From the NCBI GenBank assembly GCA_964633205.1, contig CAZWFN010000001.1, positions 114,219 to 178,218 of the forward strand: a stretch of 64,000 nt of DNA, given 5' to 3'. This stretch comes from an uncultured Myxococcales bacterium. GTDB lineage: Bacteria > Myxococcota > B64-G9. Below the pieces are notes generated by a model. The model was given only the letters and a program-made list of their open reading frames with translations. It did no database searches and had not been told where the DNA came from. Made by a program: the position numbers and the translations under genes. The first letter of the stretch is position 1. Every line of letters begins with the position of its first letter. Below are positions 7,950 to 64,000 of the stretch, one piece after another.

Positions 7950-8068
7950 GCGGCCGTCCCCCCGATTGCCATCCGGCGATCGGAAGTCGCCTTGACGTCG
8001 GGACGAAAACGAGCCAATGATAGCCCCCAAAAGCGACGACCCAAAGCCCCCGGACCGAGGAGAAGACC

Positions 8069-9514: not shown

Positions 9515-9540
9515 GCCTAAGCAGATCAAAAGACCCCGGC

Positions 9541-30355: not shown

Positions 30356-33085
30356 GTGGGTGAGCCGCCGAACAGGGACTTGGTCGTGCAACAAAGCTGG
30401 CACGCCCTGCCACCGGAGGAGGTCCCTTCGGCGCTGGCCACGGACCCCGAGCGCGGCCTCGACGAGCAGGCGGTCGAGCGCCGCCGCGAGGTCTTCGGCC
30501 CCAACCGGCTGCCGGAACGGGCGCGCGCTCGGGTCTGGCAGGTGTTCCTGCGCCAGTTCAAGGATCCGCTCATCTACATTCTGCTCATCGCCGGCGCCGT
30601 ATCGCTCACCCTCGGCAACCACGAGGACGCCGCCTTCATCTTCGCCGTGCTGCTGTTCAACGCCGTCCTGGGCACCTATCAGGAGTGGAAGGCCGAGAAC
30701 GCGGCCCAGGCCCTGCAAGAGGTGATGCGGATCAGCGCCACCGTGGTCCGTGGCGGCAAGCGGCAGCGGGTCGACAGCGACGCGCTCGTGCCAGGAGACC
30801 TCGTCCTGATGGAGTCCGGCGCCGCGGTCCCCGCCGACATCCGCCTGCTGCAATCCAGAGATCTGCGCGTTGACGAGTCGCTGCTCACCGGCGAGTCCAC
30901 ACCGGTCGACAAGCAAGCCACGGCCGAGCTGGCCGAGGATACAGCCCTCGGCGACCGGGCCACCCTGCTCCACGCCGGCTCGAGCGTCAACAGCGGCCGC
31001 GCGCGGGGCGTGGTCGTGCGTACGGGCCAGCTCACCGAGGTCGGTCGCATCGCCGAGTCGCTCTCCGAGGAGGCGCAGGTGCCTCCCCTGGTGATCCGGT
31101 TGCGCCGCTTCACCCGCATCATCGCGCTGGGGGTGCTCGTCATCATCGTCATCCTCGGCGGCGCCCAGCTCTTGCGCGGCGAAGACTTGACCCAGGTCTT
31201 CTTCCTTGCCGTCGCCCTGGCGGTCTCCGCCATCCCCGCCGGGCTGCCGGTGGCCATCACCGTCGCCCTGTCCATCGGCTCGAGCCGCATGGCCCAGCGC
31301 AATGTCATCGTCCGGCTGCTACCGGCCGTCGAGGGGCTCGGCGCCTGCACGCTGGTGGCGTCCGACAAGACCGGGACCCTCACCGCCAACAAGCTCACCG
31401 TCAAGCGCATCCGCTCCCTCGATGCCGAGGAGGTCGAGGTGGAGGGCGAGGGCTACGAGACGCGAGGAGCCATCAAGCGCGGTGATGAGGAGATCGACCT
31501 GGACCGGGAGCCGTGGCTGCGAGAGCTCGCGGAGTCCGCCGTGCTGTGCAACGGAGCAGAGTTCGAGACGAACGGCGAGACCCGGGCGGAGGGGGATACG
31601 GTCGACGTGGCGTTTTTGGTTCTCGGACGCAAGCTGGGCCTGACCCGCGAGGAGCTGCTCGATCGGCATGAAGAGATCGGGGGCATCCCCTTCGAATCGG
31701 AGCGTCGCTTCGCCGCGACCTTCAATCGTCACGGCGACCGGGTCATCGCCCATGTCAAGGGCGCAGCCAGCACACTGATGGAGATGTGCGCCGTCGACAC
31801 CGACGCGGTGCAGCAACAGGAGCAAACGCTGGCGAACGCGGGCTACCGCGTGCTGGCGGTGGCCCGCGGCGAGGTCGAGGAGCAGGCGGGACGCGACGGC
31901 GACGTAGCGGCGCTGCGGGGGTTGACCTGGCTCGGCCTAGTGGGCCAGATCGACCCGATCCGCTCCGAGGTGCCGGGTGCGATCGCGAAGTCTCGCGCCG
32001 CCGGTATCGACGTGCGCATGATCACCGGAGATCACCCGGCGACGGCGCTCGCGATCGCCCGCTCCCTGGAGCTGGCGGACCAACCGGAGCAGGTCGTCCG
32101 GGGCAAGGAACTCGAACGGGGTGAGCGAGGAGCGGACCGACGGCTGCGCGAAGCGCAGGTCTATGCCCGGGTCGAGCCGAGCCAGAAGACGACCATCGTC
32201 ACCCAGTTGCAGGACGCCGGCCACTTCGTCGCCGTCACCGGCGACGGCGTCAACGACGCCCCGGCGCTGCGGGCGGCCCACATCGGCGTGTCCATGGGCA
32301 AGAGCGGCACCGACGTCGCCCGCAACGCCTCCGACCTCATCCTGACCGACGACAACTTCGCCTCGATCGTCAACGGCATCGAACAGGGGCGCATCGCCTA
32401 CGACAACGTGCGCAAGGTGGTCTGGCTGCTCATCAGCACCGGCGTGGCGGAGCTGCTGCTGTTCACGCTCTCGGTCGCCTTCAACACGCCGCTGCCGCTC
32501 GACCCGGTGCAGCTTTTGTGGCTGAACCTGGTGACCAACGGCATCCAGGACGTCGCCCTGGCATTCGAGAGCGGCGAGCCGGACGTCCTCGGCCGCAAGC
32601 CCCGGTCGCCGGGCGAGCGCATCTTCAACCGGCTGATGATCGAGCAGGTGGCGGTGGCCGGTGTCCATATCGGGCTCGTCGGCTTCGGCGCGTTCTACCT
32701 GTTGACCGAGGTCTGGAACATCGACCCGGCACAGGCGCGCAACCTGTTGTTGCTGCTGATGGTGCTGTTCGAGAACGTGCACGCGGTCAACTGCCGCTCC
32801 GAGACGCGCTCGGTCTTCCAGGTGCCCCTCGGCGCCAACAAGCTGCTGGTGGGCGCTGTCGTCGTCGCGCAGGGCGTGCACATCGCCTCGATGTTCATCC
32901 CGGGCTGGCGCGACGTCCTCGGCATCGAGCCGGTTGCGCTGACGACCTGGCTCTACCTGCTGGGGCTGGCGCTCACGTTGTTGGTGGCCGTCGAGGCCTA
33001 CAAGCGCCTGCGGGGCCAAGCGCTGGCCGAGCGCGGCTACCAGAGTCCGCCGAACCCGACGGCCCGCGCGGCCTCCGGGCACTAG
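30356..33085 (+). CDS. cation-transporting P-type ATPase (P2/P3-like)
   Basis: Phosphorylation motif DKTGTLT, hinge VTGDGVNDAPAL, and a TGES-like actuator motif LTGESTPV. GTG start. Confidence 0.9.
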   Translation: MGEPPNRDLVVQQSWHALPPEEVPSALATDPERGLDEQAVERRREVFGPNRLPERARARVWQVFLRQFKDPLIYILLIAGAVSLTLGNHEDAAFIFAVLLFNAVLGTYQEWKAENAAQALQEVMRISATVVRGGKRQRVDSDALVPGDLVLMESGAAVPADIRLLQSRDLRVDESLLTGESTPVDKQATAELAEDTALGDRATLLHAGSSVNSGRARGVVVRTGQLTEVGRIAESLSEEAQVPPLVIRLRRFTRIIALGVLVIIVILGGAQLLRGEDLTQVFFLAVALAVSAIPAGLPVAITVALSIGSSRMAQRNVIVRLLPAVEGLGACTLVASDKTGTLTANKLTVKRIRSLDAEEVEVEGEGYETRGAIKRGDEEIDLDREPWLRELAESAVLCNGAEFETNGETRAEGDTVDVAFLVLGRKLGLTREELLDRHEEIGGIPFESERRFAATFNRHGDRVIAHVKGAASTLMEMCAVDTDAVQQQEQTLANAGYRVLAVARGEVEEQAGRDGDVAALRGLTWLGLVGQIDPIRSEVPGAIAKSRAAGIDVRMITGDHPATALAIARSLELADQPEQVVRGKELERGERGADRRLREAQVYARVEPSQKTTIVTQLQDAGHFVAVTGDGVNDAPALRAAHIGVSMGKSGTDVARNASDLILTDDNFASIVNGIEQGRIAYDNVRKVVWLLISTGVAELLLFTLSVAFNTPLPLDPVQLLWLNLVTNGIQDVALAFESGEPDVLGRKPRSPGERIFNRLMIEQVAVAGVHIGLVGFGAFYLLTEVWNIDPAQARNLLLLLMVLFENVHAVNCRSETRSVFQVPLGANKLLVGAVVVAQGVHIASMFIPGWRDVLGIEPVALTTWLYLLGLALTLLVAVEAYKRLRGQALAERGYQSPPNPTARAASGH

Positions 33086-38243: not shown

Positions 38244-40552
38244 TTAGAAACGCCGGTCGATGATGGTGGTCTCACCCGGTTGGATGCGGACCTCGATCAG
38301 CTCATCGATGCCGTCCGCCTTGCGCACCAAGCGCAGGTGATGGGTGCCGGCCGGCAGGCGTTTGCCGACCAAGGGCGTGCGGCCCAGCCGCTTGCCACCG
38401 AGCAAGACCGTCATCGGCCGCCCCGTGGTCAGCTGCAATTTTCCCCGGCCCCGGCGCCGGCGCTTGTCGGCGCTGGCGGCTGCCTCGATCTTCTGCGGAT
38501 AGAACTCGAGCTCCAGGCGCTCCTCGGCCGACAGCCACACCCGCTGGCGATCCGGCTGATGACCGGAGCAGCGGACCGTGACCTCGAACTCCCGGTTGGC
38601 CGGCAGGATCACGCTGGCCAGCGGCGTTCGGCCGGCCAGTTCCATGCCCGCCAGCTCGACCGCACAGCCGGTAGGCTCGCTGCGAACGGCCAGCTGGGCC
38701 AGCGGCGGCGGAACCGCCAGCGGCCGTGGCTGCAGCCCGGCGGTGGCGGCCGTTGCGGCCTCGTCGAGTTCGGGCTCCGGCTCCGGCTCGGCAGCCGGCT
38801 CGACCGCAGCCGGCTGCACCGGCTCGTCGTCACCCGACGGCCAGACCAGGGCGATGATCAGCAGCAGCAGCACAGCCCCGACGGCCGTGGCCGGCCAATG
38901 CAGGTGGGGCGGTAACCAAGGAGTCGGCGGAGCCGCTGCAGCGCCGGTGGGCTGGGCCGATTCGGACCGCTCGGACACGTTCGCAGCGCCGTCCTCGGCC
39001 ACGGCCAGCTTGACCCGAAATCCCTCCGCTGGACCACCGTCCCCCGCAGCATCAGCCGCTCCCGCCAGGGCTCCGGACGGCGGATCGCCGTCCGTCCCGG
39101 CCGCGGCCGGCCCCGCCTGATCTGCGCCCGCTGCCGCGACCGCCCCCGCGGTCGGCGCCCGGTCATCGACCTTGCGGGCCGCAGCCACTTTCTCGGCACC
39201 CAGATCCTCGAGCGTCGGCGGCATGGTCTCGAACGCCCCGGCCGCTGTTGCCGGCTCGTCCGGCATCCCGGATGCCGCTGGTCGCTCGGGTTGCGCGCGC
39301 TGTTCGGGCTGGTCGGGTTGCCGGGCCTCCTCGGCCGGGGTCTCTGCCGGCGGCACTGAAATCTCCGGCGGCGACACATCCGGCAAGGGATCGTCGCCGG
39401 CTGCGTCGACCGGGCCCGCATTCGCGGCTGTCTCGGCTTCGGCCCGCTCGGCCGCCGCTGGCAGAGGCGGTGGTTGCGGCGGCGGCGCGGCTTCCGGCTC
39501 GGCTTCCGGTTCGGCTTCCGGTTCGGCCGCCGGTTCGGCCGCCGTTCCGGCCGACCGGTCGGGCAGCAGCAATTCCGCGACGTCGCCTTCCAACTCGCCG
39601 GCGGCCGCCCGCTCCAATGCCTCGGCCTTGGCCTGCAAACGGTCCGCCAGGTGCTGCTCGAGCAACGTCGCCACGGTGGCCGGTCCGACCTCCCCATCCA
39701 ACCCGCGGCCCACCTCGGCCAGGGCCGACTCCAAGGCGGCGGCCGAGTCCGGTCGTGCGGCCGGATCGCGGGCCAGGCAACGCCGCAGCAGCGGCTCCAG
39801 GGCGTCAGGGTTTTCGGCGCCGGCGGGCAGCGGTGGCACGTCGCCGGCCAGGATGGCCTTGCGCGTGGCCAGATCGTCACCGCGGTCGAACAGGGATCGA
39901 CCGGCCGCCATTTGCCACAGCACGCTGCCGAGCGAAAACAGATCCGAGGCGGGCCCGGTCTGCTCGCCCAGGCATTGCTCCGGCGACAAATGGGCGGTCA
40001 AGCGGCTCGGGTGGGGACGCTCGGCCGGCCGCTGCAGGTCGAAGTTGATCACCTTGACCACGCCATCGGGCTGCAGGACCAGATTGCGCGGGTTGACGTT
40101 GCGATGGACCAGATGCAGCGGCTCGCCGGTCTTGTCCTTCAGCTGGTGGACGAAAGCCAGCCCTGCCGCAGCTTGCCGGCCCACCGCGATGATCACCGGA
40201 GCCGGCAGCGCGGTGCCGATCGGCCAGCGGCCGAGCAGCAGCCCCAGGCCGTCACCGTCCAGAAACTCGGATACGGTGAACACACCCGCCCTGGACTTGC
40301 CGGCCTCGATGACCCGCGTCAGGTTGGCCTGGGTCAGCCGGACCCCGATGCGGGCTTCGTCGAGAAAACGCCCCACAGCCGCTTCGTCGCGGGCCAGATG
40401 GGCCAACAGCTCGCGGATGACGACGAAACGACCACGGCCGGACTGGCCGGCCACCAGCCCCAGCGAGACCGCGGACAACCCGCTGCGGGTCAGCGGCAAC
40501 AGGATCTGGTACTCGCCCTTGCGCCCCTTGAGCCTGCGCCTCGCTCTTGCCA
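38244..40552 (-). CDS. transmembrane Ser/Thr-kinase-like protein, predicted pseudokinase, with C-terminal PEGA domains
   Basis: Kinase fold with catalytic residues substituted: VAIK to VVIRE, HRD to HRNVNPRN, DFG to NFD. A Pro/Ala/Glu-rich linker, one TM helix and two PEGA-like domains follow. The track ORF upstream of ATG 40552 is antisense noise. Confidence 0.7.
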
Positions 40553-40609
40553 TGGTTTTCCGATCGTAGCCGCTGACTGCCGGCGAAAGCAATGGGCTTG
40601 TCCGCCTCG

Positions 40610-41419
40610 TCAGCCGGAGCGGACTCCGTTCTTGACTCCGAGGATGGCGAACCGCTGCGCCACTCCGGCGGAAAAGGCGAACAGGCACGCCAGGCTGCGA
40701 AACGTCTCGCTGACCGCGGTGACCAACCACGGCGAGGCATCGACCAGGGGCAAAACGGCCAAAGTGCCGTCGAAGAAGAGCCAGGCGATCGAGCTGATGG
40801 TCAGCAGGGCCCAGGGCCAGCCCAGCAGACCCCCGCGCAGCGCCAGGGCGGTCAGCAACAATGGGGCGATCAGCACCAGGATGACCAGATCGCCCAGGCC
40901 GGAGGCGATCCACACCAGTGCCTCGCCCTCGCCGGCGAGCAGCCGTTGGAAGTTGACCACCACCGCCGACCCGGCCGAAGCCAACGACAGCACTACGGCG
41001 GCGGCCAGCACGGCGTGCTGGGCCCAGCGCGGACCGGGCAGCTCGAGCCCGGCCACCTTCCAGGCCCGGGCCAGCATCCAGGTGCCCACCACGGCCGAGG
41101 CATTGGCCAGCAGGGTGGCCCCACCGCGGGCCGCCCCGCGCCAGGCGACGCCCTCGGGCACCGCCAAGCCGAACACCGCGTCGCGCGCCAAGAGCAACAG
41201 CATGGCGGCGCCGTAGAACAGCCAGGCACGGCGCAGATACTCGCCGCGGGAAAAGGCGAATGCCGCCAGGACGGCGCCCACCACGGGCATGGCCTTGGCC
41301 AGCTCCATCTCGGCCCGCATGAAGGTACCGAAAGCGGGCTCCCCGGCCAACGCCAACATGCCCCCCACCAACGCGGCCGCCCAGAGCAGCGGCACCACCA
41401 CCAACACCCGGAACCTCAA
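40610..41419 (-). CDS. integral membrane protein (about 7 TM helices)
   Basis: Hydrophobic periodicity throughout. The start overlaps the stop of the small upstream ORF (ATGA). Confidence 0.55.
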   Translation of the reverse strand: MRFRVLVVVPLLWAAALVGGMLALAGEPAFGTFMRAEMELAKAMPVVGAVLAAFAFSRGEYLRRAWLFYGAAMLLLLARDAVFGLAVPEGVAWRGAARGGATLLANASAVVGTWMLARAWKVAGLELPGPRWAQHAVLAAAVVLSLASAGSAVVVNFQRLLAGEGEALVWIASGLGDLVILVLIAPLLLTALALRGGLLGWPWALLTISSIAWLFFDGTLAVLPLVDASPWLVTAVSETFRSLACLFAFSAGVAQRFAILGVKNGVRSG

Positions 41420-41646
41420 CCCAACACCTCCTCGCGGAGGGAGCGCAGCAAGGCATCTGTCGAATCGGCGCCCACCAGGGTACGCAGCATCGGTCGCAAG
41501 GCCTCGAGCAACGCGGGCGCGTCAGCGGTGGTCACCTGCTCGGGCGCCTTGCCCAGCGCCTTGCGGGCGAAGGTCTGGACCGCCACGCGGGCGGTGTTCG
41601 GCCCCAGGTAGGTACTCAACCGTTCGACGATCTGATCGGCGACACG
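41416..41646 (-). CDS. small hypothetical protein
   Basis: About 77 aa, starting MRVADQIVERL. Stop coupled to the membrane protein gene. Confidence 0.35.
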   Translation of the reverse strand, partial: RVADQIVERLSTYLGPNTARVAVQTFARKALGKAPEQVTTADAPALLEALRPMLRTLVGADSTDALLRSLREEVLG

Positions 41647-52430: not shown

Positions 52431-54931
52431 ATGCACCGCGGAGCGATCATCGCCGCTGGAAATGCCCATTCGCCGCTGGCGGTGCGGCTGGGTGTGGTCG
52501 TCGGGCTCATCTTGCTGGCGCTGCCGGCCGCGGCTGCGGATCCGCCGCCGGCCCGCAGGCTGCGGGCGGTGCGGCTGGAGCAACGGCCGCAGATCGATGC
52601 CCGGCTGGGCGAGGCGGTCTGGTCGCGGGCGCCGGTGGCCAGCGGATTGATCCAACGCTTCCCCCACACCGGCCGGCCGGCCTCCATGGCCACACGCATC
52701 CAGGTGGCCTATGACGATAACGCGCTTTACGTGGCGGCCCGCTGTCTCGATCCAGAGCCGGAGCACATCGTCGCCCGCACCACCCGGCGCGATCGCTGGA
52801 TCGAATCCGACTGGTTCACCGTGACCATCGACAGCCGCCGCGATCGGCGCACCGCTTACTTCTTCGCGGTCAACGCCGCCGGAGTCCTGCGCGACGGCAC
52901 CCTGCGCGACGAGAACGTGACCGATGACGCCTGGGATGGTGTCTGGTCCGCGGCCGCCAGCGTCGACGCGCAGGGCTGGCTCGTCGAAATGCGGATCCCG
53001 CTGCGCTTGCTGCGCTACAGCTCCGGCAGCGACGTTCGTTTCGGCATCCAGTTCGAGCGCTGGATCAGCCGCCGCAACGAGTCGGACTACTGGCAGCACA
53101 TTCCCCCCGACAGCGGCCGCTGGGTGTCGCGTTTCGGCACCTTGACCGGGCTCGACCTGCCCCCGCCGCCGCTGGCGCTGACGCTGACGCCCTACGCGGC
53201 CGCCCGGCCGCGGATCCACGATGCGGCCCTGACCGGTGAGCGTCCGCTGGAGCTGGGCGCCGACGGCAAGCTCGGGCTGGGCAGCAACTTCATGTTCACC
53301 TGGACCGTCAATCCCGACTTCGGCCAGGTCGAGGTGGACGAGAAGGTGCTCAATCTTTCCACCTACGAGACCTTCTTCCCGGAGAAGCGGCCTTTCTTCC
53401 TCGAAGATCGCTCGCTGTTCCGGCTGAGCGACTCCGGAGGCTACGGCGACGCCCAGCTGTTCTACACCCGGCGCATCGGCCGCCAGCCGCGCTCGCCGCA
53501 GCTGGAAGCTGATCAGCGCTTGATCCGACCGGCGCCGGTACCACGCATCTACGGGGCCGCCAAGCTGGCCGGCGAGACCCGGGGCCAGCTCAAGGTGGGC
53601 TTGCTGCAGGCGATCACCTCGCAGGAGCGGGTCGTGTTGCAGACAGCCGACGGCCGCCGCGCCTCGAAGCCGGCAGAGCCGCTGACATCCCACAGCGTGG
53701 CACGCTTGCAGCAGGGGTTTTGGCGCCACTCCTCGGCGGGTCTGCTGGCCACCGCCATGGCCACCCCGAACGACGGCGCCGCGCTGACCGGCGGCGGTGA
53801 CGTACAGCTCGAGTTGTTCGACGATCAGGCCCAGCTTACGGCACAGGGGCTGGTCAGTTACCTGAGTCGAGCCCGCTTCGGCTGGCAGGACCAGTACCTG
53901 CAGGCGGCGCTCGGTCGCGACGGCCCCTTCGGCTACGGCGGCCGGCTGAAGCTGGCCAAGACCGGCGGCGAGCACCTGGTGGGCTCGGTCAGCACCTTCT
54001 ACTACAGCCCCAACCTGGCCCTGAACGACATGGGCTATCTGGACCGCGCCGACCGTTTCATGCTCAGCGCCAGCCTGCGCCACCACCGCACCAAGCCGCT
54101 GGGTCCGCTGGCGCGCTACGCCATCCAGCTCAACGGCTGGCTCGACCGCAGCGCCGACTTCACCTTCAACCTCGGCGACGGCTTCAGCGTCGACGCCTGG
54201 GTCGACTTCGTCAACGGCTGGTATGCCGGTGCCTGGACCTTCGTCGGCTGGCCCCTGTGCGACGATCGCGAGACGCGCACCGCCGGCCGCATCGCCTTCT
54301 GCGGCCATGATCTGCGCACCAAGGTGGGCTTCTACGGCCAGACCAGTGAAAAGCACCCGGTGGCGGTGGGGCTGGATGCCGGCTGGAAGAGCACCGAACG
54401 GGGGCAGGGTTTCTGGCTGAGCTTGCCGCTGACCTTCAACCCGCTGGCCCGGCTGCAGATCAGCTTGCTGCCCGGCTACGAGCGCACGACCGGTCAGCCG
54501 CGCTGGCTGGAGACCCGCGACGCCGGAGCCGAGCAACGCTTCTCGTTCGCCGATCAGCACGCCGAGATCTGGGACATCACCCTGCGCACCACCTTCAGCT
54601 TCACCCCCCGGTTGAGCCTGCAGGCCTTCGCCCAGCTGTTTCTGGCCGCGGTGGATCACGGCCAAAAGTACAGCGCCACCGTCGCCGGTCGCCGCCTCCG
54701 GCTCGGCGACTTGCAGCCCGATCCGGCGGTGGCGGACGAATACGACTTCACCTCCACCGCGCTGCAGGTCAATTTGATCCTGCGCTGGGAGTTCAAACCC
54801 GGCTCGTTGCTGTATCTGGTCTACAACGGGGCGCTGGGCGACAGCGCCGCGCGGCCGGAGTTCCGCTTCGGCCCTTTGCTCGGTGACCTGTTCGCCGGCC
54901 GGGCCAGCCACCTGCTGGTGCTCAAGCTGAC

Positions 54932-54947
<16 letters not shown>
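52431..54947 (+). CDS. DUF5916 / carbohydrate-binding-family-9-like outer-membrane-associated protein
   Basis: Signal peptide, a CBM9/DOMON-like start (IDARLGEAVWSRAP), a large beta-rich body ending ...LKLTYFFG. A GGGAGACGGG RBS precedes the ATG. Confidence 0.55.
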
Positions 54948-56499
<1,552 letters not shown>

Positions 56500-56526
56500 A
56501 GGTCCCTCCGGAGCCGGCGGCTGCAG

Positions 56527-56579
56527 CGCGATATTTCGAAGACGACGCGAAATAGCATAACCAATTCGCGAAATATCGC
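56527..56579. promoter_or_regulatory. operator-like inverted repeat (GCGATATTTCG ... CGCGAAATATCGC) in the divergent intergenic region
   Basis: Arms at 56527-56539 and 56567-56579, with a third half-site CGCGAAATAGC in between. The local sequence is AT-rich relative to the genome. Confidence 0.4.
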
Positions 56580-56685
56580 AATGGACAGCCCTGGTACACC
56601 ATAACACACAGATTGAAAAGGGATTATTTTGGGCATGCTCCTTGCGACGCAGTCCTCGGAGATTCTGCCACAGGAGGTTTGCGAG

Positions 56686-57444
56686 ATGGAGCGCCACCGG
56701 TCTTTCTTCGCGGCCAGCACCCTGGCGCTGGTGCTGCTCACCGGCCCAGCCGCCGCCGGCGCTGATGCGGGTGAGCGCATCCTGCGCCTGATGGATGCCC
56801 AGCTGACCTCGGCCGACAGCCAGTACTTCGAATACGAGATGATCACCCGCACCCCGGGCCGCGGCCAGCGCAGCACGGTCTTCGAGGTGACCATACAGGG
56901 CGATCAGCGCCGGCGGCTGGAGTTCCTCGCCCCGGGCGACGTCAAGGGCATGCGGGTGCTGATCCTGTCGCTCGACCGGATGTACGTCTACCTGCCGGCC
57001 TACCGCAAGGTGCGCCGGGTGGCCAGCCACGTGCGCGACCAGGGCTTCATGGGCTCGGCATTCAGCCACGACGACATGTCGGTGGTCACCTATGCCGACA
57101 AGCTCAGCGGCCGCCTGCTCGCCGAGGACGACGAGCACTGGACGGTCGAGGCGGTGCGGCGTGCCGACAGCGACTACCGCTACGCCAAGCTGCGCCTCGT
57201 CATCCGGCGCGACATCCGCCATCCGGCGCGCATCGAGTACTTCAACGCCGCTGGCCAAAAGGTCAAGACCGAGACCCGCAGCGCCTATGAGTGCCGCGGC
57301 CAGCACTGCAATCCCAAGCGCATGACCCTGGTGGATCACACCCGCGGCGGGGTGACCAGCGTGCTCGAGCGGCGGGCGTGGAAGATCGAACCCGAGGTGC
57401 CGGCCAACTTCTTCAGCGTCCGCTCGCTGCAGCGCCGTCGCTAA
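56686..57444 (+). CDS. LolA-like outer-membrane lipoprotein-sorting-family protein
   Basis: An AGGAGG RBS precedes the ATG. Signal peptide and LolA-like beta-sheet pattern. Confidence 0.55.
   Translation: MERHRSFFAASTLALVLLTGPAAAGADAGERILRLMDAQLTSADSQYFEYEMITRTPGRGQRSTVFEVTIQGDQRRRLEFLAPGDVKGMRVLILSLDRMYVYLPAYRKVRRVASHVRDQGFMGSAFSHDDMSVVTYADKLSGRLLAEDDEHWTVEAVRRADSDYRYAKLRLVIRRDIRHPARIEYFNAAGQKVKTETRSAYECRGQHCNPKRMTLVDHTRGGVTSVLERRAWKIEPEVPANFFSVRSLQRRR
57408..57437 (+). repeat. 30-bp direct repeat, copy A (3' end of the LolA-like gene)
   Basis: CTTCTTCAGCGTCCGCTCGCTGCAGCGCCG is identical to 57817-57846. Confidence 0.7.
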
Positions 57445-57873: not shown

Positions 57874-58911
57874 TCAAGGGGCCGGCCACTCGACCACCTC
57901 GATGCGTTCCACCGCCTGGAGCCAGCGGTCGGCGTGCAGATCGCCCGCCAGCACCAGCTGAAAACGCCCGCCATCCGCGAGCGGCCGGCCGCCGCAGCGG
58001 TCGGCCAGCAGGATGCGATCGCCGCCGGGCGCGTATAGCTCGCCCGCCGACACCAGCACCTGGTAGCCATCGGGGGCCGACAGCACCACCGCCCGCTGCG
58101 GATGGAAGGCGAAGCCAGCCGCCTCCAGCAGCACGCGCAGCCGCACGCCGCTGTAATGCCGCAGGCCGTGGAAGCCGGTGCCCTCGCCGGTGCGCACCGC
58201 CGTCAACTCGCGCCGCGGCAGATCGGCCGGCAAGGCGTCGAAGGTGCGCGCCGCCACCCCTACCCCTTCCAGGCGGACTTCCGCTGCGTAGAGGCGCTGC
58301 CGGGCATCGCGCTTCGGCGCGGGCGACGCCGGGCGCGGCTCCACCACCGCGATCGCGACCACCGGCTCCACGGCCCGGTCGCCGTAGATCACCCCGGACG
58401 GCACCAGCTTGGGCAGGGCCACCCGGCGCTGCAGCTGCTCCAGCCGCGGCCGCGCTTCGGCCGGCTGGTGGCAGCGGCTGCAGGCCTTGTGGGGCCGCAC
58501 CGGGGTCCAGTCGGTGGCCAGAATGAAGCGGCCCGGATCGCTGTAGAACACCTCGCCCCAGGACAGCAGCACCGAGCGCCCCCGCCGATCGCGAACGGCG
58601 ATGGCCAGGTCGGTCGGCTTGCGGAAGGCGCCGGCGCTCTTGCCCAGCCGGGCCAGCTCCAGCACCTGCCGCAGCGACGCACCGCGATAGCGCATGGTGC
58701 CGTGGAAGCTGCCGTCGCGGTGCACCTCGCTGAGCTGAACTGCATGGTGTGGCAGGCGCTGCAAGTCGGCCAAGCGCAGCCGCAGCGGCTGGCCGACCGC
58801 GCCGCTGATGCGCAGTTCGGCCGGCCGGACCGCAGCCCCGGCTCCAGCCCCGGCTGCAGCCACCGCGGCCGCCAGCAGCAAGGCCCCGCTGCCTGTTGCG
58901 TACCGTGCCAT
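57874..58911 (-). CDS. secreted protein with two tandem sulfite-oxidase-fold (molybdopterin-oxidoreductase-like) domains and one CXXCH haem c motif
   Basis: Signal peptide. Two repeats carrying the W.GV.L..LL..AG ... P.RLV.PG....W...V..IEV pattern. CSRCH sits at nt 58468-58482 between the two domains. Confidence 0.55.
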   Translation of the reverse strand: MARYATGSGALLLAAAVAAAGAGAGAAVRPAELRISGAVGQPLRLRLADLQRLPHHAVQLSEVHRDGSFHGTMRYRGASLRQVLELARLGKSAGAFRKPTDLAIAVRDRRGRSVLLSWGEVFYSDPGRFILATDWTPVRPHKACSRCHQPAEARPRLEQLQRRVALPKLVPSGVIYGDRAVEPVVAIAVVEPRPASPAPKRDARQRLYAAEVRLEGVGVAARTFDALPADLPRRELTAVRTGEGTGFHGLRHYSGVRLRVLLEAAGFAFHPQRAVVLSAPDGYQVLVSAGELYAPGGDRILLADRCGGRPLADGGRFQLVLAGDLHADRWLQAVERIEVVEWPAP

Positions 58912-58934
58912 CCCGGACAGGCGCCTCCGTCGCA

Positions 58935-59777
58935 TCAGACCACTCCTTTCTCGGCTCCGGCGTCACGCCGGCGGCGGCCCAGCAGGCCTTCGACGTAGAA
59001 CCACAGCAACAGAATCAGCACCAGCCCGAAGGCCGGCAGGATGATCGGCAACCCCGGGTCGTAGACCACCAGCAGGCTCGGCCGCGGCCCGCTGGCCGCC
59101 GGGGTGGGCCCGGCATGATCGCAGCTGACCGCGCGGTCCGCGGCGGCCGGTCTCTTCTCCAGCGGTCGATCCAGCAGCAGGTGGCGACCGCGGAACGAAG
59201 CGGGGTCCAGGTGGACCACCTCCAACCGATCGCCCCCCGGCCCGCGCAGCCGGACCCGCTGCCGCGCCAGCCACTGGCCCAACCGCGAGCCGGGTGGAAA
59301 GGCCTCGCCCTCGAAGCCGATCACCTGCAGTTCGGCCCCGGCCACCTCGATCCGGCCGCCCGGCCCGGGCAGGCCCAACCGCTGCCAGCTGCCCCACCCC
59401 AGGGTGATCGCATGGCCGACCAGGATCGCCCAGAACAGGATATGGATGGCGGTCGGGATCAGGGCCACCGTCCAACGGTGGCCGCCCAGCTCGCGCCGCC
59501 GGGGCCATAGGGTGCGCAGCCGTTGCAGGGCGCAGACCGCGGTGTTGATCGCCAGCGCCGTCAGGCACAGCAGCAACAACAGCAGCCACCAGCAACGATG
59601 CCACTCATCGGCCAGGTGGCGGGCCAGCCAAATCGGGGTGGCCAGACGGTTGAGCTGGCCGAACAGGGCCTTGTCCGAGGCGTACAGACCGCCGATCAGC
59701 ATGCAGCCGGCCGCCGCCAGCAGCAGCCAGAAGGCCAGCCGCAGGTCCCCCATCGCGCGCCACAGCCGCAGCCACAC
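58935..59777 (-). CDS. compact ResB-like (CcsB-family) membrane protein
   Basis: N-terminal TM, then an LFGQLNRLATPIWLARHL...WWLLLLLLCLTALAINTAVC ResB-like segment, a TM with conserved His (WAILVGHAIT), a periplasmic region, and a C-terminal TM. GTG start is 1 nt after the upstream gene's stop. The track ORF's N-terminal 100 aa is an out-of-frame overlap. Confidence 0.5.
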   Translation of the reverse strand: MWLRLWRAMGDLRLAFWLLLAAAGCMLIGGLYASDKALFGQLNRLATPIWLARHLADEWHRCWWLLLLLLCLTALAINTAVCALQRLRTLWPRRRELGGHRWTVALIPTAIHILFWAILVGHAITLGWGSWQRLGLPGPGGRIEVAGAELQVIGFEGEAFPPGSRLGQWLARQRVRLRGPGGDRLEVVHLDPASFRGRHLLLDRPLEKRPAAADRAVSCDHAGPTPAASGPRPSLLVVYDPGLPIILPAFGLVLILLLWFYVEGLLGRRRRDAGAEKGVV

Positions 59778-59778
59778 C

Positions 59779-60555
59779 TCAGCCTCCGATCCGTGGGAAG
59801 AACAGCTCCTGCACGGCGCTGCTGGCCGATATCGCCAGGCCCACCAACCCGGCCACCACGGCGAAGCCGGCCCGGCGCTGCAGCGGCCAGCGGGGCAGGT
59901 AGCGCAGGTGCAGGTAGGCGGCGTAGAGCAGCCAGACGCCGGCCGAGAACAGGTGGCGCGGGCTGAAGCGGAAGGTGTTGCCCCAGCCCAGATAGCACCA
60001 GGCGAAGCCGACCACCTGGGCGATGCTGAAGGCCACCAGGCCCCAGACCAGGTAGGCGTGGAAGCCGGCGGGCTCACCGCGGTGGGGCCGCAGCAGCGCC
60101 AATGCGGCCCACCAGGCTCCGCCGAGAAAGGCCGCGTAGGCCAGCCCCTCGGTGATGAAGAAGGCGGTGGCCAGCGCGGTGATCTTGCGCGGCTCCGGGG
60201 GCAGGATGCCCTGGGCGTAGGCGATGCTGAAAGCCAGCAGCGCCAGCGCCGGTACCAGCCCCAGGCCCCAATGCGACGACCCCCGGGCCAAGCGTTCCAG
60301 GCCGGCCAGCAGGGCCAGACACCAGGGGATGAAGAAGGTGCCCTCGAATACGGGATTGGCGATCCAGACCCCGCCCAACCAGCCGCGGCCCAGCAGGGCC
60401 AGCGCGTGGATCAGCAGCCCGGCGCAGTAGAACCACCAGGCCGGCCCGAGCCGGCTGCTGCGCCGCGCCGGCCAGCGCCACCAGAGCAGCAGGGCGCCGG
60501 CGTAGCAGAGCAGGGCGATGACCAGGTAGCTGGGCCTGCCGGTGGTGAACACCAT
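59779..60555 (-). CDS. cytochrome c assembly protein family (CcsA/HemX-like) with degenerate WWD motif
   Basis: Polytopic membrane protein. GFAWCYLGWGNTFRFSPRHLF...WLLYAAYLHLRY aligns with the CcsA WG.YWSWDPKE...YLH region, but WDPKE is replaced by RFSPRH. Confidence 0.55.
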   Translation of the reverse strand: MVFTTGRPSYLVIALLCYAGALLLWWRWPARRSSRLGPAWWFYCAGLLIHALALLGRGWLGGVWIANPVFEGTFFIPWCLALLAGLERLARGSSHWGLGLVPALALLAFSIAYAQGILPPEPRKITALATAFFITEGLAYAAFLGGAWWAALALLRPHRGEPAGFHAYLVWGLVAFSIAQVVGFAWCYLGWGNTFRFSPRHLFSAGVWLLYAAYLHLRYLPRWPLQRRAGFAVVAGLVGLAISASSAVQELFFPRIGG

Positions 60556-60565
60556 GCACTCCAGC

Positions 60566-62632
60566 TCAACCGGCGCTCAGCCGGTAGCCGCACCAGACGC
60601 TCAGGCCCCGGTCGGGGAAGCCGTAGCGGGTCTGGTAGTTCATGTCGAGCAGGTTGCCGGCCTTGCAGAACAGGCGCACCCCGGGCGCCGGCTGGTAGGC
60701 CAGGCTGGCGTCCCAGACCACGAAGGTGCCCAGGGTGCCCAGGCCCAGGATGCTGTAGTCGTCGAAGGGCTGCGGCCCGACCACCCGCAGCAAGCTGCCG
60801 ATCTCCCAGCGCTCACCCGGCTCGGCCAACAGCCGCAGGCTGGCCTGGTGGCCGGGGATCTGGGCGATGCGGTCGTCCAGCCGGTCGGCATTGATGGTGC
60901 GCGCGTGCACAAAGGCATAGGCCGCCTGCAGCTGCAGCCAGGGCCAGGGCCGGGCCACCAGGCCGGCCTCGAAGCCGGCCAGCCGCGCCCGGCCGACATT
61001 CCGCTGCTGGCTCAGACCGCGGGTCTCGGGCAGCCAGACGCGCATGATCAGATCGTCGACCTCGGCCTCGAACACGGACAGGTCGAGCCGCAGCGGCGCG
61101 GCCACCTGCCAGGAGACGTCCAGGGCGGTGTACAGGGCCCGCTCCGGCTTCAAGGTCGGGTTGGCCACGGTGAAGCCCTTGGTGGCCGAGTAGCGCTCGC
61201 CCAGCGTGGGCAGCCGGTGGCGGCCGGCCACCGACAACCGCAGCAGCCAGACCGGGCTCGGCTCGTAGCGCAGCGCGATCAGCGGCGCGCACAGCACCCG
61301 GATCGGCGTCTCGGGCTCGTCCTCGCCGGCGCCGGCGGTGCGGCTGGCGTACAGCGGCACGTCCACGTCGAGCTGGGCCGAGCCGATCAGGCCAAGCGCG
61401 TCCGACGCCAGCCACTCCAGCTCCGGCACCAGCCGGGTGAGCAGCCGGCCGGAGGAGCGGCGCGGCTCGTCGCGGTCCAGCCGGTCGTGGTGGTGATCGG
61501 CCCGGGCCTCGAGCCACAGCCGGCCCACCAGCCGGCCCGGCAGCGGCGCGCTCAACCGCAGCCGGGCGCCCAGGCTGCGCTCGTGGTACCAGGAGACGAA
61601 GGCGTTGGGTCCCTGCTGGCTGTTGTAGCCGGCGTCGTCGTAGCCGTCCAGCCGGTTGCCGTAGAAAGCGCCGTAGGCCACCTCGTCGCCCTGCAGCCCC
61701 CCGGCCCGCCAGCGGTGGCCCGCCTGGACCAGCAGCGCCTGCCAGACCGTGAAGCGGCGGAAGAAGGGCCGCATGTCGGTCATGTGCCGCGGCACCCCGA
61801 ACACGCCGTCCAGAAACGTGGCCTGCAGCCACAGCTGCTGGGTCTCGGCGAGGCGGTAGCGCAGCTTGGCGCTAACGTGGGCCATGAACCGATCGCTGTT
61901 GTCCAGCCGGCCACCGTCCTCGATCACCCGCTCGCCGACCGTCACCGGCTCGAAGCGCGACGACAGCTGAACACCGTCCGAGTCCTGCACCCCGGCGCCC
62001 ACCGCGTAGGCCAGTGGACCGGCTTCCAGGGAGTGGGCCAACCAGGTGTGCAGCTCGCCGGCTACACCGAGTTGGGCCAGATGCGCGATCAGCGGTGCCC
62101 GGGCCGGATCGCGGGTCTCGATCAGCACCGCGCCGCCCATGCCGCCCGGAGCGTGGGCGATGGAGGTGGGCCCCTTGAGCAGGCGCACCCGATCGATCAG
62201 CTCCACCGGCAGCTTGCCCAGATCGGTCGAGCCCGAGTAGGGCATGGCCAGCGGCACCCCGTCGAGATAGACCGCCACCCCGCGCTGGTCGAATCCGCGC
62301 AGCCGGATGGTGCGGCGACCGCTGCGGCCGCTGGAGGCGTAGACCGAGGGCTGCTGCTCGATCAGCTCGGCGGCGCTGGTCACCGCCCGCCGCTCGACCT
62401 CCTCGCGCTCCAGCCGCACCCGGCTGGAGCCGCGATCGACCGGCCGCTGCTCGCGGATGGTGAAGACCTCGTCGACCGCCTCGGAACCGTCTGCCGCTGC
62501 GGATGCCTCGCGTTCCCCGTCCTCGGCGTCTTGGTCGCCGGCGGCCAGCACCGGCAGCGGCGCTGCCATCCAGGCGACGCCGGTCAGCAGCCATACGGCT
62601 GCTCGGCCGATACGGGCGAGGGGCGCGATCAC
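60566..62632 (-). CDS. TonB-dependent outer-membrane receptor
   Basis: Signal peptide, plug domain (IRLRGFDQRGVAVYLDGVPL), and a long beta-barrel with Tyr/Gly-rich strands. Confidence 0.85.
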   Translation of the reverse strand: MIAPLARIGRAAVWLLTGVAWMAAPLPVLAAGDQDAEDGEREASAAADGSEAVDEVFTIREQRPVDRGSSRVRLEREEVERRAVTSAAELIEQQPSVYASSGRSGRRTIRLRGFDQRGVAVYLDGVPLAMPYSGSTDLGKLPVELIDRVRLLKGPTSIAHAPGGMGGAVLIETRDPARAPLIAHLAQLGVAGELHTWLAHSLEAGPLAYAVGAGVQDSDGVQLSSRFEPVTVGERVIEDGGRLDNSDRFMAHVSAKLRYRLAETQQLWLQATFLDGVFGVPRHMTDMRPFFRRFTVWQALLVQAGHRWRAGGLQGDEVAYGAFYGNRLDGYDDAGYNSQQGPNAFVSWYHERSLGARLRLSAPLPGRLVGRLWLEARADHHHDRLDRDEPRRSSGRLLTRLVPELEWLASDALGLIGSAQLDVDVPLYASRTAGAGEDEPETPIRVLCAPLIALRYEPSPVWLLRLSVAGRHRLPTLGERYSATKGFTVANPTLKPERALYTALDVSWQVAAPLRLDLSVFEAEVDDLIMRVWLPETRGLSQQRNVGRARLAGFEAGLVARPWPWLQLQAAYAFVHARTINADRLDDRIAQIPGHQASLRLLAEPGERWEIGSLLRVVGPQPFDDYSILGLGTLGTFVVWDASLAYQPAPGVRLFCKAGNLLDMNYQTRYGFPDRGLSVWCGYRLSAG

Positions 62633-63489
62633 AGGTCGGCCAGGTAGACCTTCACCACCGCCTTGACCCGGGCACAGCCGCCGATATCGAGCTCCGGGTC
62701 GAAGGTCAGCTGGCTGGTATCGACCACCAGGCCGCAGCGGCCGGCCAGCGCGCCGTCGACCGGCAAATAGTCGGTGCAGCGGTTGGCGGCGGTGGGCCGA
62801 TAGCCGTCGCTGCCCTCGAAGTCCATGCTGATGGCATTCGGGTCCAGCCCCAGCTCGGAGGCGGCCAGAATGGTCTCCAGCAGCACCACCTGCTCACCGT
62901 CGAGCTCGGCGGCGGCCAGGCCGCCGGCGTCGACCACCACCGCCTGATCGCCGTAGTGGACCTCCACCTCACCCAGCTCCTGGGCGGGATCGGGGTCCGG
63001 ATCCGGATCCTCACCGAGCAGCTCCTCCCGGGTGTCGGCCAGTCGGATCGAGGCCACGTCCTTGACGAACATGCAGCGCTCGAATTCGAGCTCCGGTTCC
63101 CACTCCAGGTTGCGGGTGCCGCGTTCGATGGTGCCGCGGTCGATGACGTCGGTCTGGGCCGGAGCCATGTCGGGCTCGCAGGTGCCGATGGGCGAGAAGC
63201 CGTCCGCGCCCACGAAGTCGATCCACAGCCCGCCGGCGTCGACCACCAGGCCGGAGCCGGCCACCAGCTCGTCGACGTAGACCACCGGCTTGTTGGGACC
63301 GAGCTCCACCGTATTCACATCGTCGAAGTGCACCACCTGGCTGAAGTCGCCGTAGCTGACCTCCACGCTCTGACCGCCCTCGGTCCACTTGTCGTCGCCC
63401 TCGTCCACCGACTGGCTGCAGCCGGCGGTGGCCAGCAGCAGGGCCAGCCCTCCGACCAAGAATCTGAAATAGCTATATTTTGGTGTCAT
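62629..63489 (-). CDS. lipoprotein with internally duplicated domain, first gene of the TonB-receptor operon
   Basis: Lipobox LLLATAGCS. Two repeats (V.VDAGGL...F.G.DG..P...C) and a DPDPDPDP linker. Its stop overlaps the TBDR ATG (ATGA). A GGAGGATGG RBS precedes the ATG. Confidence 0.55.
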   Translation of the reverse strand: MTPKYSYFRFLVGGLALLLATAGCSQSVDEGDDKWTEGGQSVEVSYGDFSQVVHFDDVNTVELGPNKPVVYVDELVAGSGLVVDAGGLWIDFVGADGFSPIGTCEPDMAPAQTDVIDRGTIERGTRNLEWEPELEFERCMFVKDVASIRLADTREELLGEDPDPDPDPAQELGEVEVHYGDQAVVVDAGGLAAAELDGEQVVLLETILAASELGLDPNAISMDFEGSDGYRPTAANRCTDYLPVDGALAGRCGLVVDTSQLTFDPELDIGGCARVKAVVKVYLADL

Positions 63490-63606
63490 GCGTCCATCCT
63501 CCGGCACGGTTGTTCGACTCCCATGGGTGCCCGATCTCGACCCGCTTTTCAAGAAAAAAATAACCAGAATAAACCAAAACGGACAGCGCGGCTTCACCCC
63601 GGAGGC

Positions 63607-64000
63607 TCAGCGCTCGATGCGCACCGCTGCCCGGCCCGTGCCGTCCAGCTGCACCGCCACCGGCGGCAGAAGCTGTTCGCTGCGGGCATCGTAGGCCAGC
63701 AGCTCGATCTCTTCGCCGGGGGCCCCCTGCAGCTCGACCGCGATGGCACCGCCGGCCACCCGTACGGCCGAAAAGCGCCGGTCGGCCAGGGTGACGAACT
63801 TGGCCGGCTCGCCGATCAGGGCCAGGCCGTTGTCCAGCACCGGTGCCAGCACCAGGTAGCCGAAATCGTAGAGATCGGTGAACGGCTCGACCTCCATCCG
63901 GCCGCGGACCAGCCGGGCCGTCCGGTGCCGCCAGTCGTAGGCCACCCGCTCGCGGTCGCAGCCCAACTCCGCCTCCAGATCGACCTGCCAATCGCGCACC
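63607..64000 (-). CDS. 3' part of a gene continuing beyond the window end (C-terminal beta-sandwich-like domain)
   Basis: The open frame runs to the window edge and has protein-like composition. The start is outside the window. Confidence 0.4.
   Translation of the reverse strand, partial: VRDWQVDLEAELGCDRERVAYDWRHRTARLVRGRMEVEPFTDLYDFGYLVLAPVLDNGLALIGEPAKFVTLADRRFSAVRVAGGAIAVELQGAPGEEIELLAYDARSEQLLPPVAVQLDGTGRAAVRIER

Follow-up and report, generated by a model that had tools for sequence, protein, structure and literature searches.

A TonB-dependent receptor operon with a compact CcsA/ResB-like pair in an uncultured Myxococcales bacterium, and its possible role in tungsten or molybdenum acquisition

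What do relatives of the haem-handling apparatus of cytochrome c maturation do in an operon that also encodes a TonB-dependent receptor (TBDR)? This question is raised by a locus in a 64,000-nucleotide stretch of DNA from an uncultured Myxococcales bacterium (contig CAZWFN010000001.1 of assembly GCA_964633205.1), the whole of which is called the window here. According to the listing of its open reading frames (ORFs), positions 57874-63489 of the minus strand encode a lipoprotein, a TBDR, a CcsA-like and a ResB-like membrane protein, and a secreted protein with two sulfite-oxidase-fold domains, called MO2. A first-pass annotation, made from the letters alone, had correctly described five chained minus-strand genes, and had taken them for a haem-trafficking or single-substrate cytochrome-maturation module linked to outer-membrane uptake. 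The genes, in the order of their transcription, are as follows.

62629..63489, minus strand: lipoprotein, 286 aa, with lipobox LATAGC and two internal repeats of ~110 aa
60566..62632, minus strand: TBDR, 688 aa, with plug (PF07715, 4.5e-20) and barrel (PF00593, 3.6e-29)
59779..60555, minus strand: CcsA-like membrane protein, 258 aa, with eight predicted helices and a weak match to PF01578
58935..59777, minus strand: ResB-like membrane protein, 280 aa, with a GTG start, three N-terminal transmembrane (TM) helices and a C-terminal TM helix
57874..58935, minus strand: MO2, 353 aa, secreted, with two truncated sulfite-oxidase/PruR-type (pterin-pocket) domains

Comparison with related loci points to a different answer. 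The module family is likely to serve the acquisition of tungsten (W) or molybdenum (Mo), or of their cofactor. Whether the operon as a whole is a TonB-dependent W (or Mo) acquisition module that re-uses a cut-down CcsBA, with the redox path proposed below, and not a system for cytochrome c maturation, is in our judgement evenly balanced.

The module and its regulation in relatives

The CcsA-like alignment was used for a pattern scan of the GTDB species genomes, which recovered 61 loci; 45 of these (L009-L053) contain the pair. In all 45, the ResB-like gene comes immediately after the CcsA-like gene. A TBDR gene immediately precedes the pair or MO2 in 34 loci, and 34 loci have MO2. Two gene orders are seen, TBDR-MO2-CcsA-ResB and TBDR-CcsA-ResB-MO2. 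The 45 loci belong to at least five phyla (Spirochaetota/Leptospirales, the Desulfobacterota groups Desulfobacterales and Geobacteraceae, Nitrospirota/Thermodesulfovibrionales, Acidobacteria, Aminicenantes and Myxococcota). The same arrangement occurs in the metagenomic loci L005-L008, among which L005 contains counterparts of the five window genes (37-47% identity); the closest loci, L070 and L073, are 99% and 86% relatives of the window. Gene order, which the first-pass annotation had proposed as a check, is thus conserved in relatives, and the module is real. As had also been claimed, the combination of TBDR, CcsA/ResB and sulfite-oxidase-like proteins was not found described in the full-text literature searched: its components come from known superfamilies (TBDR, CcsA/ResB, sulfite-oxidase/PruR fold), and their combination and regulation are new to that literature.

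In five loci, a Moco (molybdenum cofactor) riboswitch (RF01055, 63-72 bits, E 1e-12 to 1e-15) lies directly upstream of the TBDR gene of the module, namely in L042, L044 and L053 (Aminicenantes), L041 (Acidobacteria) and L025 (Leptospiraceae). The P3 hairpin is absent from all five of these riboswitches, and the P3-less class of Moco RNA has been found to track the metabolism of the tungsten cofactor, Tuco (Regulski et al., PMC2408646). In L041, the 3' arm of P1 contains the Shine-Dalgarno sequence of the TBDR gene, whose AUG comes shortly after this arm, and in the Aminicenantes riboswitch loci a GGCCTCC...GGAGG element follows the aptamer. Both features imply OFF switches, which suit an acquisition gene better than a cofactor-using enzyme.

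The neighbouring genes point the same way. TupA-like genes were found by BLAST with reference proteins in 16 of the 45 loci and TupB-like genes in 13. Similarly, a Pfam scan of 300 flanking ORFs placed PBP_like_2 (17 matches) and SBP_bac_11 (16) on top, the other leading families being ABC_tran, TOBE, BPD_transp_1, ExbB, ExbD and TonB. In NCBIfam, TupA is the sole family matched by the neighbouring binding proteins (233-251 bits), and the permeases match TupB. ExbB/ExbD/TonB genes adjoin the module in 9-12 of the 45 loci (10-13 in the raw count, which includes L006). A single gene run in one direction, TBDR-CcsA-ResB-MO2-TonB-TupA-TupA-TupB-ATPase, is found in L033. In L039, whose CcsA-like protein is the most similar to that of the window among the Myxococcota loci of the genome scan (50-54% identity; its MO2 is 51% identical and has a CXXCH), tupB-tupA is divergent from MO2-CcsA-ResB. 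A regulator that combines HTH_17 and PBP_like domains, which we take to be the architecture of the tungstate-responsive regulator TunR, is encoded in 12 loci (raw count 14, including L006 and L007). PF12727 (PBP_like) also occurs in Desulfovibrio, fused there to a MoeA that the tungsten cofactor requires (PMC10102598). At least one such W/Mo mark is present in 28 of the 45 loci, and many of the remaining loci are short contigs. The haem or iron uptake theme implied by the first-pass annotation gives way here to riboswitches of the tungsten-cofactor type, TupABC-like genes and HTH+PBP_like regulators. Collectively, these data indicate that the module family is probably repressed when the cofactor is plentiful and forms part of W (or W/Mo) acquisition.

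The accompanying genes differ by lineage: some lineages have co-operonic TupABC and Geobacteraceae have an APC permease, whereas the Aminicenantes operons behind riboswitches contain no further gene of this kind. In the Geobacteraceae-type loci L038 (11402-12862) and L046 (11687-13015), the APC-family permease gene is placed between the ResB-like gene and exbB-exbD-tonB, and there is no MO2; the related loci L040 and L051 also have no MO2 and carry exbB-exbD-tonB.

Other elements were seen near the module. TPP (thiamine pyrophosphate; opposite strand) and fluoride riboswitches occur within a few kb of the pair (L043:4722-4818, L049:1680-1777, L032:15971-16039, L035:16586-16655) and probably belong to neighbouring operons. 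In L033, from Thermodesulfovibrionales, a LysR regulator of the 'selenium metabolism-associated' family (6522-7427; NF040786, 253.6 bits, above cutoff) is encoded ahead of the module, and the TBDR of the module (7796-9883) partially matches the NCBIfam models of selenocysteine-motif TonB receptors (CU-type, 119 bits). In the Spirochaetota-like metagenomic locus L006 (7252-10252), a module with ExbBD-TonB adjoins opposite-strand siroheme-synthase-like, radical-SAM and NirD/L-like genes, an association seen once only; this gene set presumably resembles an alternative haem biosynthesis set.

The proteins of the module

The assignment of the membrane pair and of MO2 turns on four short motifs.

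59953..59985, minus strand: WGNTFRFSPRH, residues 191-201 of the CcsA-like protein, which replaces the WWD signature WGxxWxWDPKE
59908..59910, minus strand: His216 (YLHLR) of the CcsA-like protein, counterpart of the transmembrane histidine TM-His2; invariant in the family and aligned to the canonical YLHLR
59412..59444, minus strand: His112 ... Gly121-His122 in the third TM helix (TM3) of the ResB-like protein, PTAIHILFWAILVGH; His112 aligns with TM-His1 of ResB/CcsB
58468..58482, minus strand: CSRCH, residues 152-156 of MO2, a c-type haem-binding motif within a domain-1 insertion

By profile comparison, the two membrane proteins are true homologues of CcsA and ResB, as the first-pass annotation had stated. 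The CcsA-like family (16 sequences) aligns with canonical CcsA/ResC over 227 columns (hhalign probability 99.6%, E 1.4e-23). The ResB-like family (22 sequences) aligns over its N-terminal 161 columns (97.8%, E 1.3e-12) with genuine ResB, as represented by resB genes from Paenibacillus and other loci, where they precede resC; this alignment spans the three N-terminal helices, including the conserved transmembrane histidine. The searches with single family models that had been suggested as a check are less uniform. PF00174 is found in two stretches of MO2 (35.9 bits), but PF01578 remains below its gathering score in the CcsA-like protein (E 7.8e-6, 26.1 bits against 29.9), although relatives of this protein carry PF01578, and the ResB-like window protein has no Pfam or NCBIfam match, PF05140 included. 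Among ResB-like relatives, PF05140 gives weak matches (E at least 0.16) in three of five. TIGR03144 scores 35 bits on the CcsA-like protein against a cutoff of 188. The AlphaFold model of this protein (pLDDT 82.7) has eight helices, and its best fold match in the PDB, CcsBA 7s9z, is weak (E 0.057, TMq 0.46); direct sequence searches of the PDB with the three uncharacterised proteins gave no useful match.

In the canonical CcsA set, the alignment shows as invariant P-His1 (IHV), W-x-W-D-P-K-E, TM-His2 (YLHLR) and P-His2 (GLHSY), P-His denoting the two histidines that flank WWD in the periplasmic haem site. The CcsA-like family has Phe at the P-His1 position (aFF.TE), ends in FPRIGG, which has no histidine and hence no P-His2, and shows the consensus WGNTFRW(G/S)PRH at the WWD position. 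The first-pass annotation had read the WWD signature of the window protein as degenerate. The sequence is as it described, but what replaces the signature is a different motif, WGNTFR(W/F)xxRH, which is family-wide and found across phyla; W191, R200 and H201 are invariant in the 16 sequences. By canonical topology, R57, W59, E71, E136, W191, R200, H201 and E250 are all predicted to be periplasmic. C187 is likewise invariant, as is C82 of the ResB-like protein. The YLH histidine region had rightly been noted as kept.

The ResB-like protein is as small as had been noted, with 280 aa from the GTG at 59777 and a periplasmic domain of ~110 aa, against more than 250 aa in genuine ResB. Nearly all members of its family measure 240-300 aa, compared with 377-703 aa for genuine ResB. 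The family is rare, with 140 relatives among 1.84 billion representatives in an exhaustive HMMER search; a word-indexed protein search returned a single ResB-like relative and eight MO2 relatives, and the family became visible through the GTDB pattern scan and HMMER. H112 and H122 are invariant in the 22 ResB-like sequences, in which TM3 carries the motif P(S/T)xxH-x8-GH.

CcsBA has been described as a channel for a cofactor, with one inner and one outer site; all four conserved histidines are needed for cytochrome c maturation, and haem is attached at an external haem site made up of WWD and the P-His pair (PMC6299221). In the family studied here, the WWD loop has become a different conserved motif and the P-His residues are absent; the pair is a distinct compact branch of the haem-handling (WWD) superfamily. 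Because both transmembrane histidines are invariant, it may still bind or move haem, and the invariant H201 beside the rebuilt loop could act as a substitute haem ligand.

The AlphaFold model of MO2 (pLDDT 78.5) has two similar domains. In Foldseek they match SorA, chicken sulfite oxidase and YedY, in each case the Moco domain (E 1e-8 to 1e-5), the best per-domain fit being to the PruR pterin-binding proteins 7kom, 7kp2 and 7rkb (TMt 0.61-0.66, with 0.64-0.66 for 7kom and 7rkb); the domain-2 profile found only E 0.5 matches to SorA in the PDB. PruR is a secreted protein with a truncated sulfite-oxidase fold and no Mo-ligand cysteine, in which the pterin is sandwiched by the Tyr of N-x-Y and a C-terminal Trp (PMC11194511). 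Similarly, the Mo-ligand cysteine is absent from both MO2 domains and the hairpin is shortened (TAVRTGEG / LSEVHRDG). In the D-G-Y of domain 2, D85 and Y87 are invariant and G86 is present in 20 of the 21 aligned sequences. Subtype A has the domain-2 Trp (ADRW); in Spirochaetota this Trp is shifted and in Aminicenantes it is missing, and domain 1 lacks both the DGY tyrosine and the stacking Trp.

Relatives of MO2 carry plain Sec signals or lipoboxes and no twin-arginine (Tat) motif, as read by eye. Tat export of the window protein (MRRRRLSG) was considered and rejected: the 86%-identical P0002 does not share this motif, and lipoboxes occur in other relatives. A protein exported unfolded by Sec cannot carry a cofactor inserted in the cytoplasm, so that any ligand of MO2 would be bound in the periplasm. 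The first-pass annotation had counted exactly one CXXCH in MO2, which is CSRCH, and had made its conservation in orthologues a test of its reading. CXXCH is present in eight of the nine closest homologues and in 21 of 23 aligned sequences of subtype A (the window, Myxococcota, Nitrospirota, Desulfobacterales and extra Spirochaetota copies), but is absent from the Spirochaetota subtype, made up of 353-aa lipoproteins encoded between the TBDR and the CcsA-like gene, and from the Aminicenantes subtype.

In P0003, P0007 and at least eight loci, MO2 is fused to a complete, divergent tetrapyrrole-methylase (TP_methylase) domain (PF00590, E about 1e-35) behind a Sec signal (L014:5440-7203, L018:11533-13296, L022:13596-15416, L028:3215-5017, L030:3973-5739, L031:11491-13236, L036:1723-3477 and L048:1379-3142). 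All these fusions keep the CXXCH, and a TP_methylase fold in the periplasm is unexpected. Residues 260-297 of MO2 (the GEGTGFHG region, domain 2) weakly match NF041762, the 'GEGP motif-containing diheme protein' (E 2e-3 in the window, 2.6e-5 in L031:11491-13236), which hints at a related family of haem-carrying sulfite-oxidase-like proteins.

A search for the TBDR subfamily (haem/haemophore) had been suggested. The N-terminal plug and the barrel domain, which has 22 strands in TBDRs, are clearly matched, but no substrate-specific NCBIfam model reaches its cutoff: matches to B12, haem, siderophore and copper receptor models are partial and far below threshold, with 103 bits against 600 for BtuB and 89-94 bits against ~320 for haem. 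The lipoprotein, for which no Pfam or NCBIfam family was matched, is probably a surface or periplasmic partner of the receptor. An orthologue of 42% identity adjoins the orthologous TBDR in L005; otherwise, among the loci compared, it occurs in the window lineage only. L005 has three paralogues of it around the module (4781-5641, 6917-7963 and 9675-10229), two of which bear long acidic (Asp-Thr/Asp-Ala)n repeats after the lipobox.

Operon layout and flanking genes

The lipoprotein stop and the TBDR start overlap in GTGA at 62629-62632, as read from the sequence, and not in ATGA as had been reported. The TBDR stop is separated from the ATG of the CcsA-like gene by a 10-nt gap with GGAG inside. 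The reported 1-nt junction at 59777-59781 is present: the TGA of the CcsA-like gene is followed, after one base, by the GTG of the ResB-like gene, which is preceded by GGAGG. The ResB-like stop and the MO2 start overlap in TGATG (58933-58937). These junctions are those of a translationally coupled operon. Two features lie upstream of it.

63490..63606, minus strand: AT-rich intergenic leader upstream of the lipoprotein gene, with two conserved blocks
63607..64000, minus strand: 3' end of an upstream lipoprotein gene, 667 aa in L070/L073, which runs off the end of the window

The 117-nt leader stands out as AT-rich against a window background of ~70% GC. The first-pass annotation was right on this composition but had called the region a promoter, and a consensus scan of 63490-63606 found neither a sigma-70-type promoter nor a terminator. 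Two blocks on the minus strand, TTCTGGTTATTTTTTTCTTGAAAA at 63546-63569 and GATCGGGCAC at 63527-63536, are identical in L073/L074 (86-91% protein identity), where their flanks have diverged; they are candidate operator or promoter elements. A sigma-54 promoter, suggested by the conserved sigma-54 activator nearby, seems unlikely, the blocks misfitting the GG-N10-GC spacing by eye. No Rfam family matched the leader region 63300-64000, even at E <= 5. The upstream 667-aa lipoprotein gene, complete in L070 (L070:3326-5329) and L073, may be co-transcribed with the operon; its product has no Pfam or NCBIfam family and no homologue in loci beyond the closest relatives.

On its other side, the operon is flanked by genes for a LolA_like protein (56629-57444, plus strand), the sigma-54 activator (54932-56602, minus strand), whose N-terminal sensor region has no family, and a DUF5916/CBM9 protein (52440-54947, plus strand). 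The same neighbours are found in L073/L074, and in L070 they are set apart from the operon by an insertion of ~5 kb, which encodes a CarboxypepD_reg protein among others. Elsewhere the window includes a 1404-aa Ser/Thr kinase with WD40 repeats (3735-7949), a PEGA-domain Ser/Thr kinase (38244-41456) and a P-type cation ATPase (30356-33085), which are unrelated to the operon. Together with the high GC, such genes suggest a genome of Myxococcota type.

Proposed function, competing explanations and implications

In the mechanism that we propose, the lipoprotein and the TBDR would carry a scarce or bulky W/Mo-bearing species over the outer membrane, and MO2, which has one c-type haem motif in the window lineage, would take up this species in the periplasm. 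The CcsA-like/ResB-like pair would be the inner-membrane partner, with its two transmembrane histidines kept as a membrane haem-b site and its periplasmic WWD/P-His haem site rebuilt into a site rich in Arg, His and Glu. Most likely it would pass electrons from haem b to MO2 and its ligand, as may be compared with the b-haem of CcmF; less likely, it would pass the ligand itself. In the end, the metal would either reach TupABC-type transporters as tungstate or arrive directly in the cytoplasm. The homologies, the lost and kept residues, the synteny and the tungsten-type regulation and neighbours of relatives are observed; what the ligand is, which way it moves and whether the pair is redox-active we infer, as we do, through orthology, the extension to the window locus. 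The narrower proposal, that the pair holds haem b and feeds electrons to a ligand at MO2 or at the external site, thereby freeing tungstate for Tup-type transporters, is tentative and falls somewhat short of an even chance.

Several observations weigh against W/Mo acquisition. Within the window, no RF01055 riboswitch reaches the gathering score over the 64 kb, nor does L070, L073 or L005 have one, and no TupA/B-like ORF is found in the 64 kb at E 1e-8; likewise, no tup/mod gene or HTH+PBP_like regulator lies within reach in the window, L070, L073 or L005. With the window lineage devoid of tungsten marks, its link to tungsten passes through orthologues of 37-54% identity. The TupA-like matches are under the NCBIfam equivalog cutoffs, and the gene calls in the loci come from our own ORF finder and BLAST on contigs of metagenome-assembled genomes. 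Some loci are without MO2, and in six the pair occurs without TBDR or MO2. The best partial matches of the window TBDR are B12 and haem receptors, and both transmembrane histidines, the CXXCH and the frequent MO2-TP_methylase fusion hint at tetrapyrroles rather than a metal oxyanion. To our knowledge, a redox step in the release of W or Mo has no precedent.

The haem reading of the first-pass annotation, in which the pair is a dedicated system II haem exporter/lyase or a haem supplier for the CXXCH of MO2, together with haem or iron uptake, has to be weighed against system II itself. The likeness is considerable: homology covers the whole CcsA core and the three N-terminal ResB helices, the genes are adjacent and translationally coupled, the fold match is to 7s9z, and TM-His1 and TM-His2 are both invariant. 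CXXCH is also kept in most subtype-A MO2 proteins, including all the TP_methylase fusions, H201 by the rebuilt loop could replace a haem ligand, and Wolinella has dedicated CcsBA isoenzymes for unusual haem motifs. However, P-His1, P-His2 and the WWD tryptophans with DPKE are absent family-wide, WGNTFR(W/F)xxRH standing in their place, and the periplasmic domain of ResB, the presumed contact site for the apocytochrome, is down to ~110 aa. Unlike in system II, the pair runs in the order CcsA then ResB, inside a TonB-dependent uptake operon which in relatives is under tungsten-type control; no haem- or iron-type regulation was seen in the loci. A CXXCH protein is found in the module in 16 of the 45 loci, and the other 29 keep the pair without any such protein; a pair kept without a candidate substrate would not be a dedicated lyase for that substrate. 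The single-substrate cytochrome-maturation claim is therefore unsupported, since histidines needed for maturation (PMC6299221) are missing family-wide and 29 loci have no CXXCH protein, and we consider the haem reading highly improbable. Uptake of a corrinoid or another tetrapyrrole would agree with the precorrin-methylase-type TP_methylase domain fused to MO2, with BtuB as the top, weak NCBIfam match of the window TBDR, and with the tetrapyrrole-handling ancestry of CcsA/ResB. It is hardly credible, and was rejected, as no cobalamin riboswitch reaches the Rfam gathering threshold in the window or the ~45 loci, where Moco, TPP and fluoride riboswitches were found; moreover, the BtuB score lies far below its cutoff (103 bits against 600), and no cob/cbi/btuFCD genes are among the top Pfam neighbour families.

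Two other explanations centre on MO2. It might be a cofactor enzyme of MsrPQ (YedYZ) type, with the pair as haem-b electron donor or cofactor-loading exporter, the TBDR importing the substrate of the enzyme and the riboswitch being present because the enzyme needs the cofactor. In both systems, the gene of a periplasmic sulfite-oxidase-fold protein adjoins that of a membrane protein bearing transmembrane histidines, the fold matches of MO2 include YedY, MO2 bears a haem-c motif and the pair a probable haem-b site. In addition, Moco RNAs are known upstream of cofactor-using enzyme genes, including putative sulfite oxidases, as in Syntrophomonas wolfei (PMC2408646). Against this, MO2 has a truncated hairpin and no Mo-ligand cysteine, which is present in MsrP, MsrQ belongs to an unrelated ferric-reductase-like family, and the MsrPQ system has no TBDR. 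MsrP has a Tat signal and contains Moco, and the Sec signals or lipoboxes of the MO2 relatives argue against a cofactor loaded in the cytoplasm. The OFF-switch geometry of L041 also speaks against it, and co-operonic TupABC and TonB fit uptake better, so that this explanation appears quite unlikely.

Alternatively, the module might salvage the cofactor itself: the TBDR would import pterin-bound W or Mo (Tuco, Moco, molybdopterin or a breakdown product) that other cells have released, MO2 would bind the pterin in the periplasm, and the pair, as the descendant of a haem channel, would translocate this metallocofactor to the cytoplasm. A TBDR is expected for a ligand of 500-1500 Da, and MO2, whose relatives are exported by Sec or as lipoproteins, has the Moco/pterin-pocket fold without the Mo-ligand cysteine, the DGY tyrosine being present in 20 of 21 domain-2 sequences. 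The Aminicenantes and Acidobacteria operons (TBDR-CcsA-ResB-MO2) form complete units after a Tuco-type OFF riboswitch and have no ABC transporter in their vicinity, and coenzyme riboswitches do control importers of the sensed cofactor, as does the TPP riboswitch upstream of a thiamine receptor. Moco is, however, very labile, a His/His transmembrane site would be needless for a pterin cargo, the stacking Trp of MO2 is not conserved in all subtypes, and the frequent co-operonic TupABC suggests free tungstate as the end product. The inner and outer sites of CcsBA (PMC6299221) are both conserved in the pair in altered form, which favours a channel, and PruR-type pockets have been described as too short for Moco (PMC11194511), which does not favour this cargo. 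Overall, we regard salvage as unlikely.

W/Mo acquisition with a redox-active pair may also be compared with other known systems. CcmF of system I is a WWD-family protein with a stable transmembrane b-haem, thought to reduce haem in the external site. It shares with the pair its superfamily and a His/His membrane haem site beneath an external ligand site, and offers a precedent for a redox role; unlike the pair, it keeps WWD and P-His, is far larger and acts on cytochromes together with CcmH and CcmE, and we know of nothing that links it to TBDRs or tungsten. In ferrioxamine uptake, FoxA is a TBDR and FoxB an inner-membrane haem-b reductase. As in the module, an outer-membrane receptor is encoded with a membrane haem protein acting on an imported metal complex in the periplasm, although FoxB, a PepSY-TM protein, has no relationship to CcsA/ResB, and this system handles iron under iron-dependent control. 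TunR/ModE-type regulators control the genes of tungstate/molybdate uptake. The TupABC/ModABC regulons with their Moco/Tuco riboswitches (PMC2408646) resemble the module relatives in the P3-less Moco RNA, the HTH+PBP_like regulator and the TupA/B/C neighbours, but the known systems have the periplasmic binding protein as their first component; in the literature searched, neither an outer-membrane receptor nor a sulfite-oxidase-like protein or CcsBA-like pair was found described for W/Mo uptake. PruR of Agrobacterium and its relatives (PMC11194511) shares with MO2 the truncated fold without the Mo-ligand hairpin, Sec export and a tyrosine (DGY) that would stack on the pterin. MO2 differs from it as a tandem of two domains with a CXXCH insertion in the window lineage and frequent TP_methylase fusion, which lacks the PW motif and the DcpA (GGDEF-EAL) partner and is accompanied by a TBDR and the CcsBA-like pair in place of a DcpA-, TorS- or BaeS-type sensor; GGDEF/EAL is not among the top neighbour families of the module loci. 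The module thus lacks defining features of a system II synthetase, of a sulfite-oxidase molybdoenzyme and of a PruR-DcpA system, and it would work like a TonB-dependent metal-acquisition locus.

The public names 'cytochrome c biogenesis protein CcsA', 'YedYZ catalytic subunit' and 'precorrin-4 methylase' are probably misleading for genes of this module. For scarce or chemically locked W and Mo, as in sulfidic sediments, the described systems begin in the periplasm; the module would supply the outer-membrane step and would add to the receptor two unexpected helpers. The pair marks a fourth, compact branch of the CcmC/CcmF/CcsA haem-handling superfamily, in which the catalytic haem site is gone and the proteins have been put to another use, and it is a natural experiment on the transmembrane histidine site acting alone. 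There is also a small probability that the module is the first bacterial salvage route for the W/Mo cofactor, or for pterin-bound W/Mo, composed of a TBDR, a PruR-like binder and a two-site channel derived from CcsBA. If so, the haem-handling (WWD) superfamily would gain its first non-haem cargo and the Tuco-sensing OFF riboswitch heading the operon would be explained. Bacteria would then share the Mo/W cofactor as they share B12 or thiamine, with consequences for auxotrophy and for cross-feeding within anaerobic communities.

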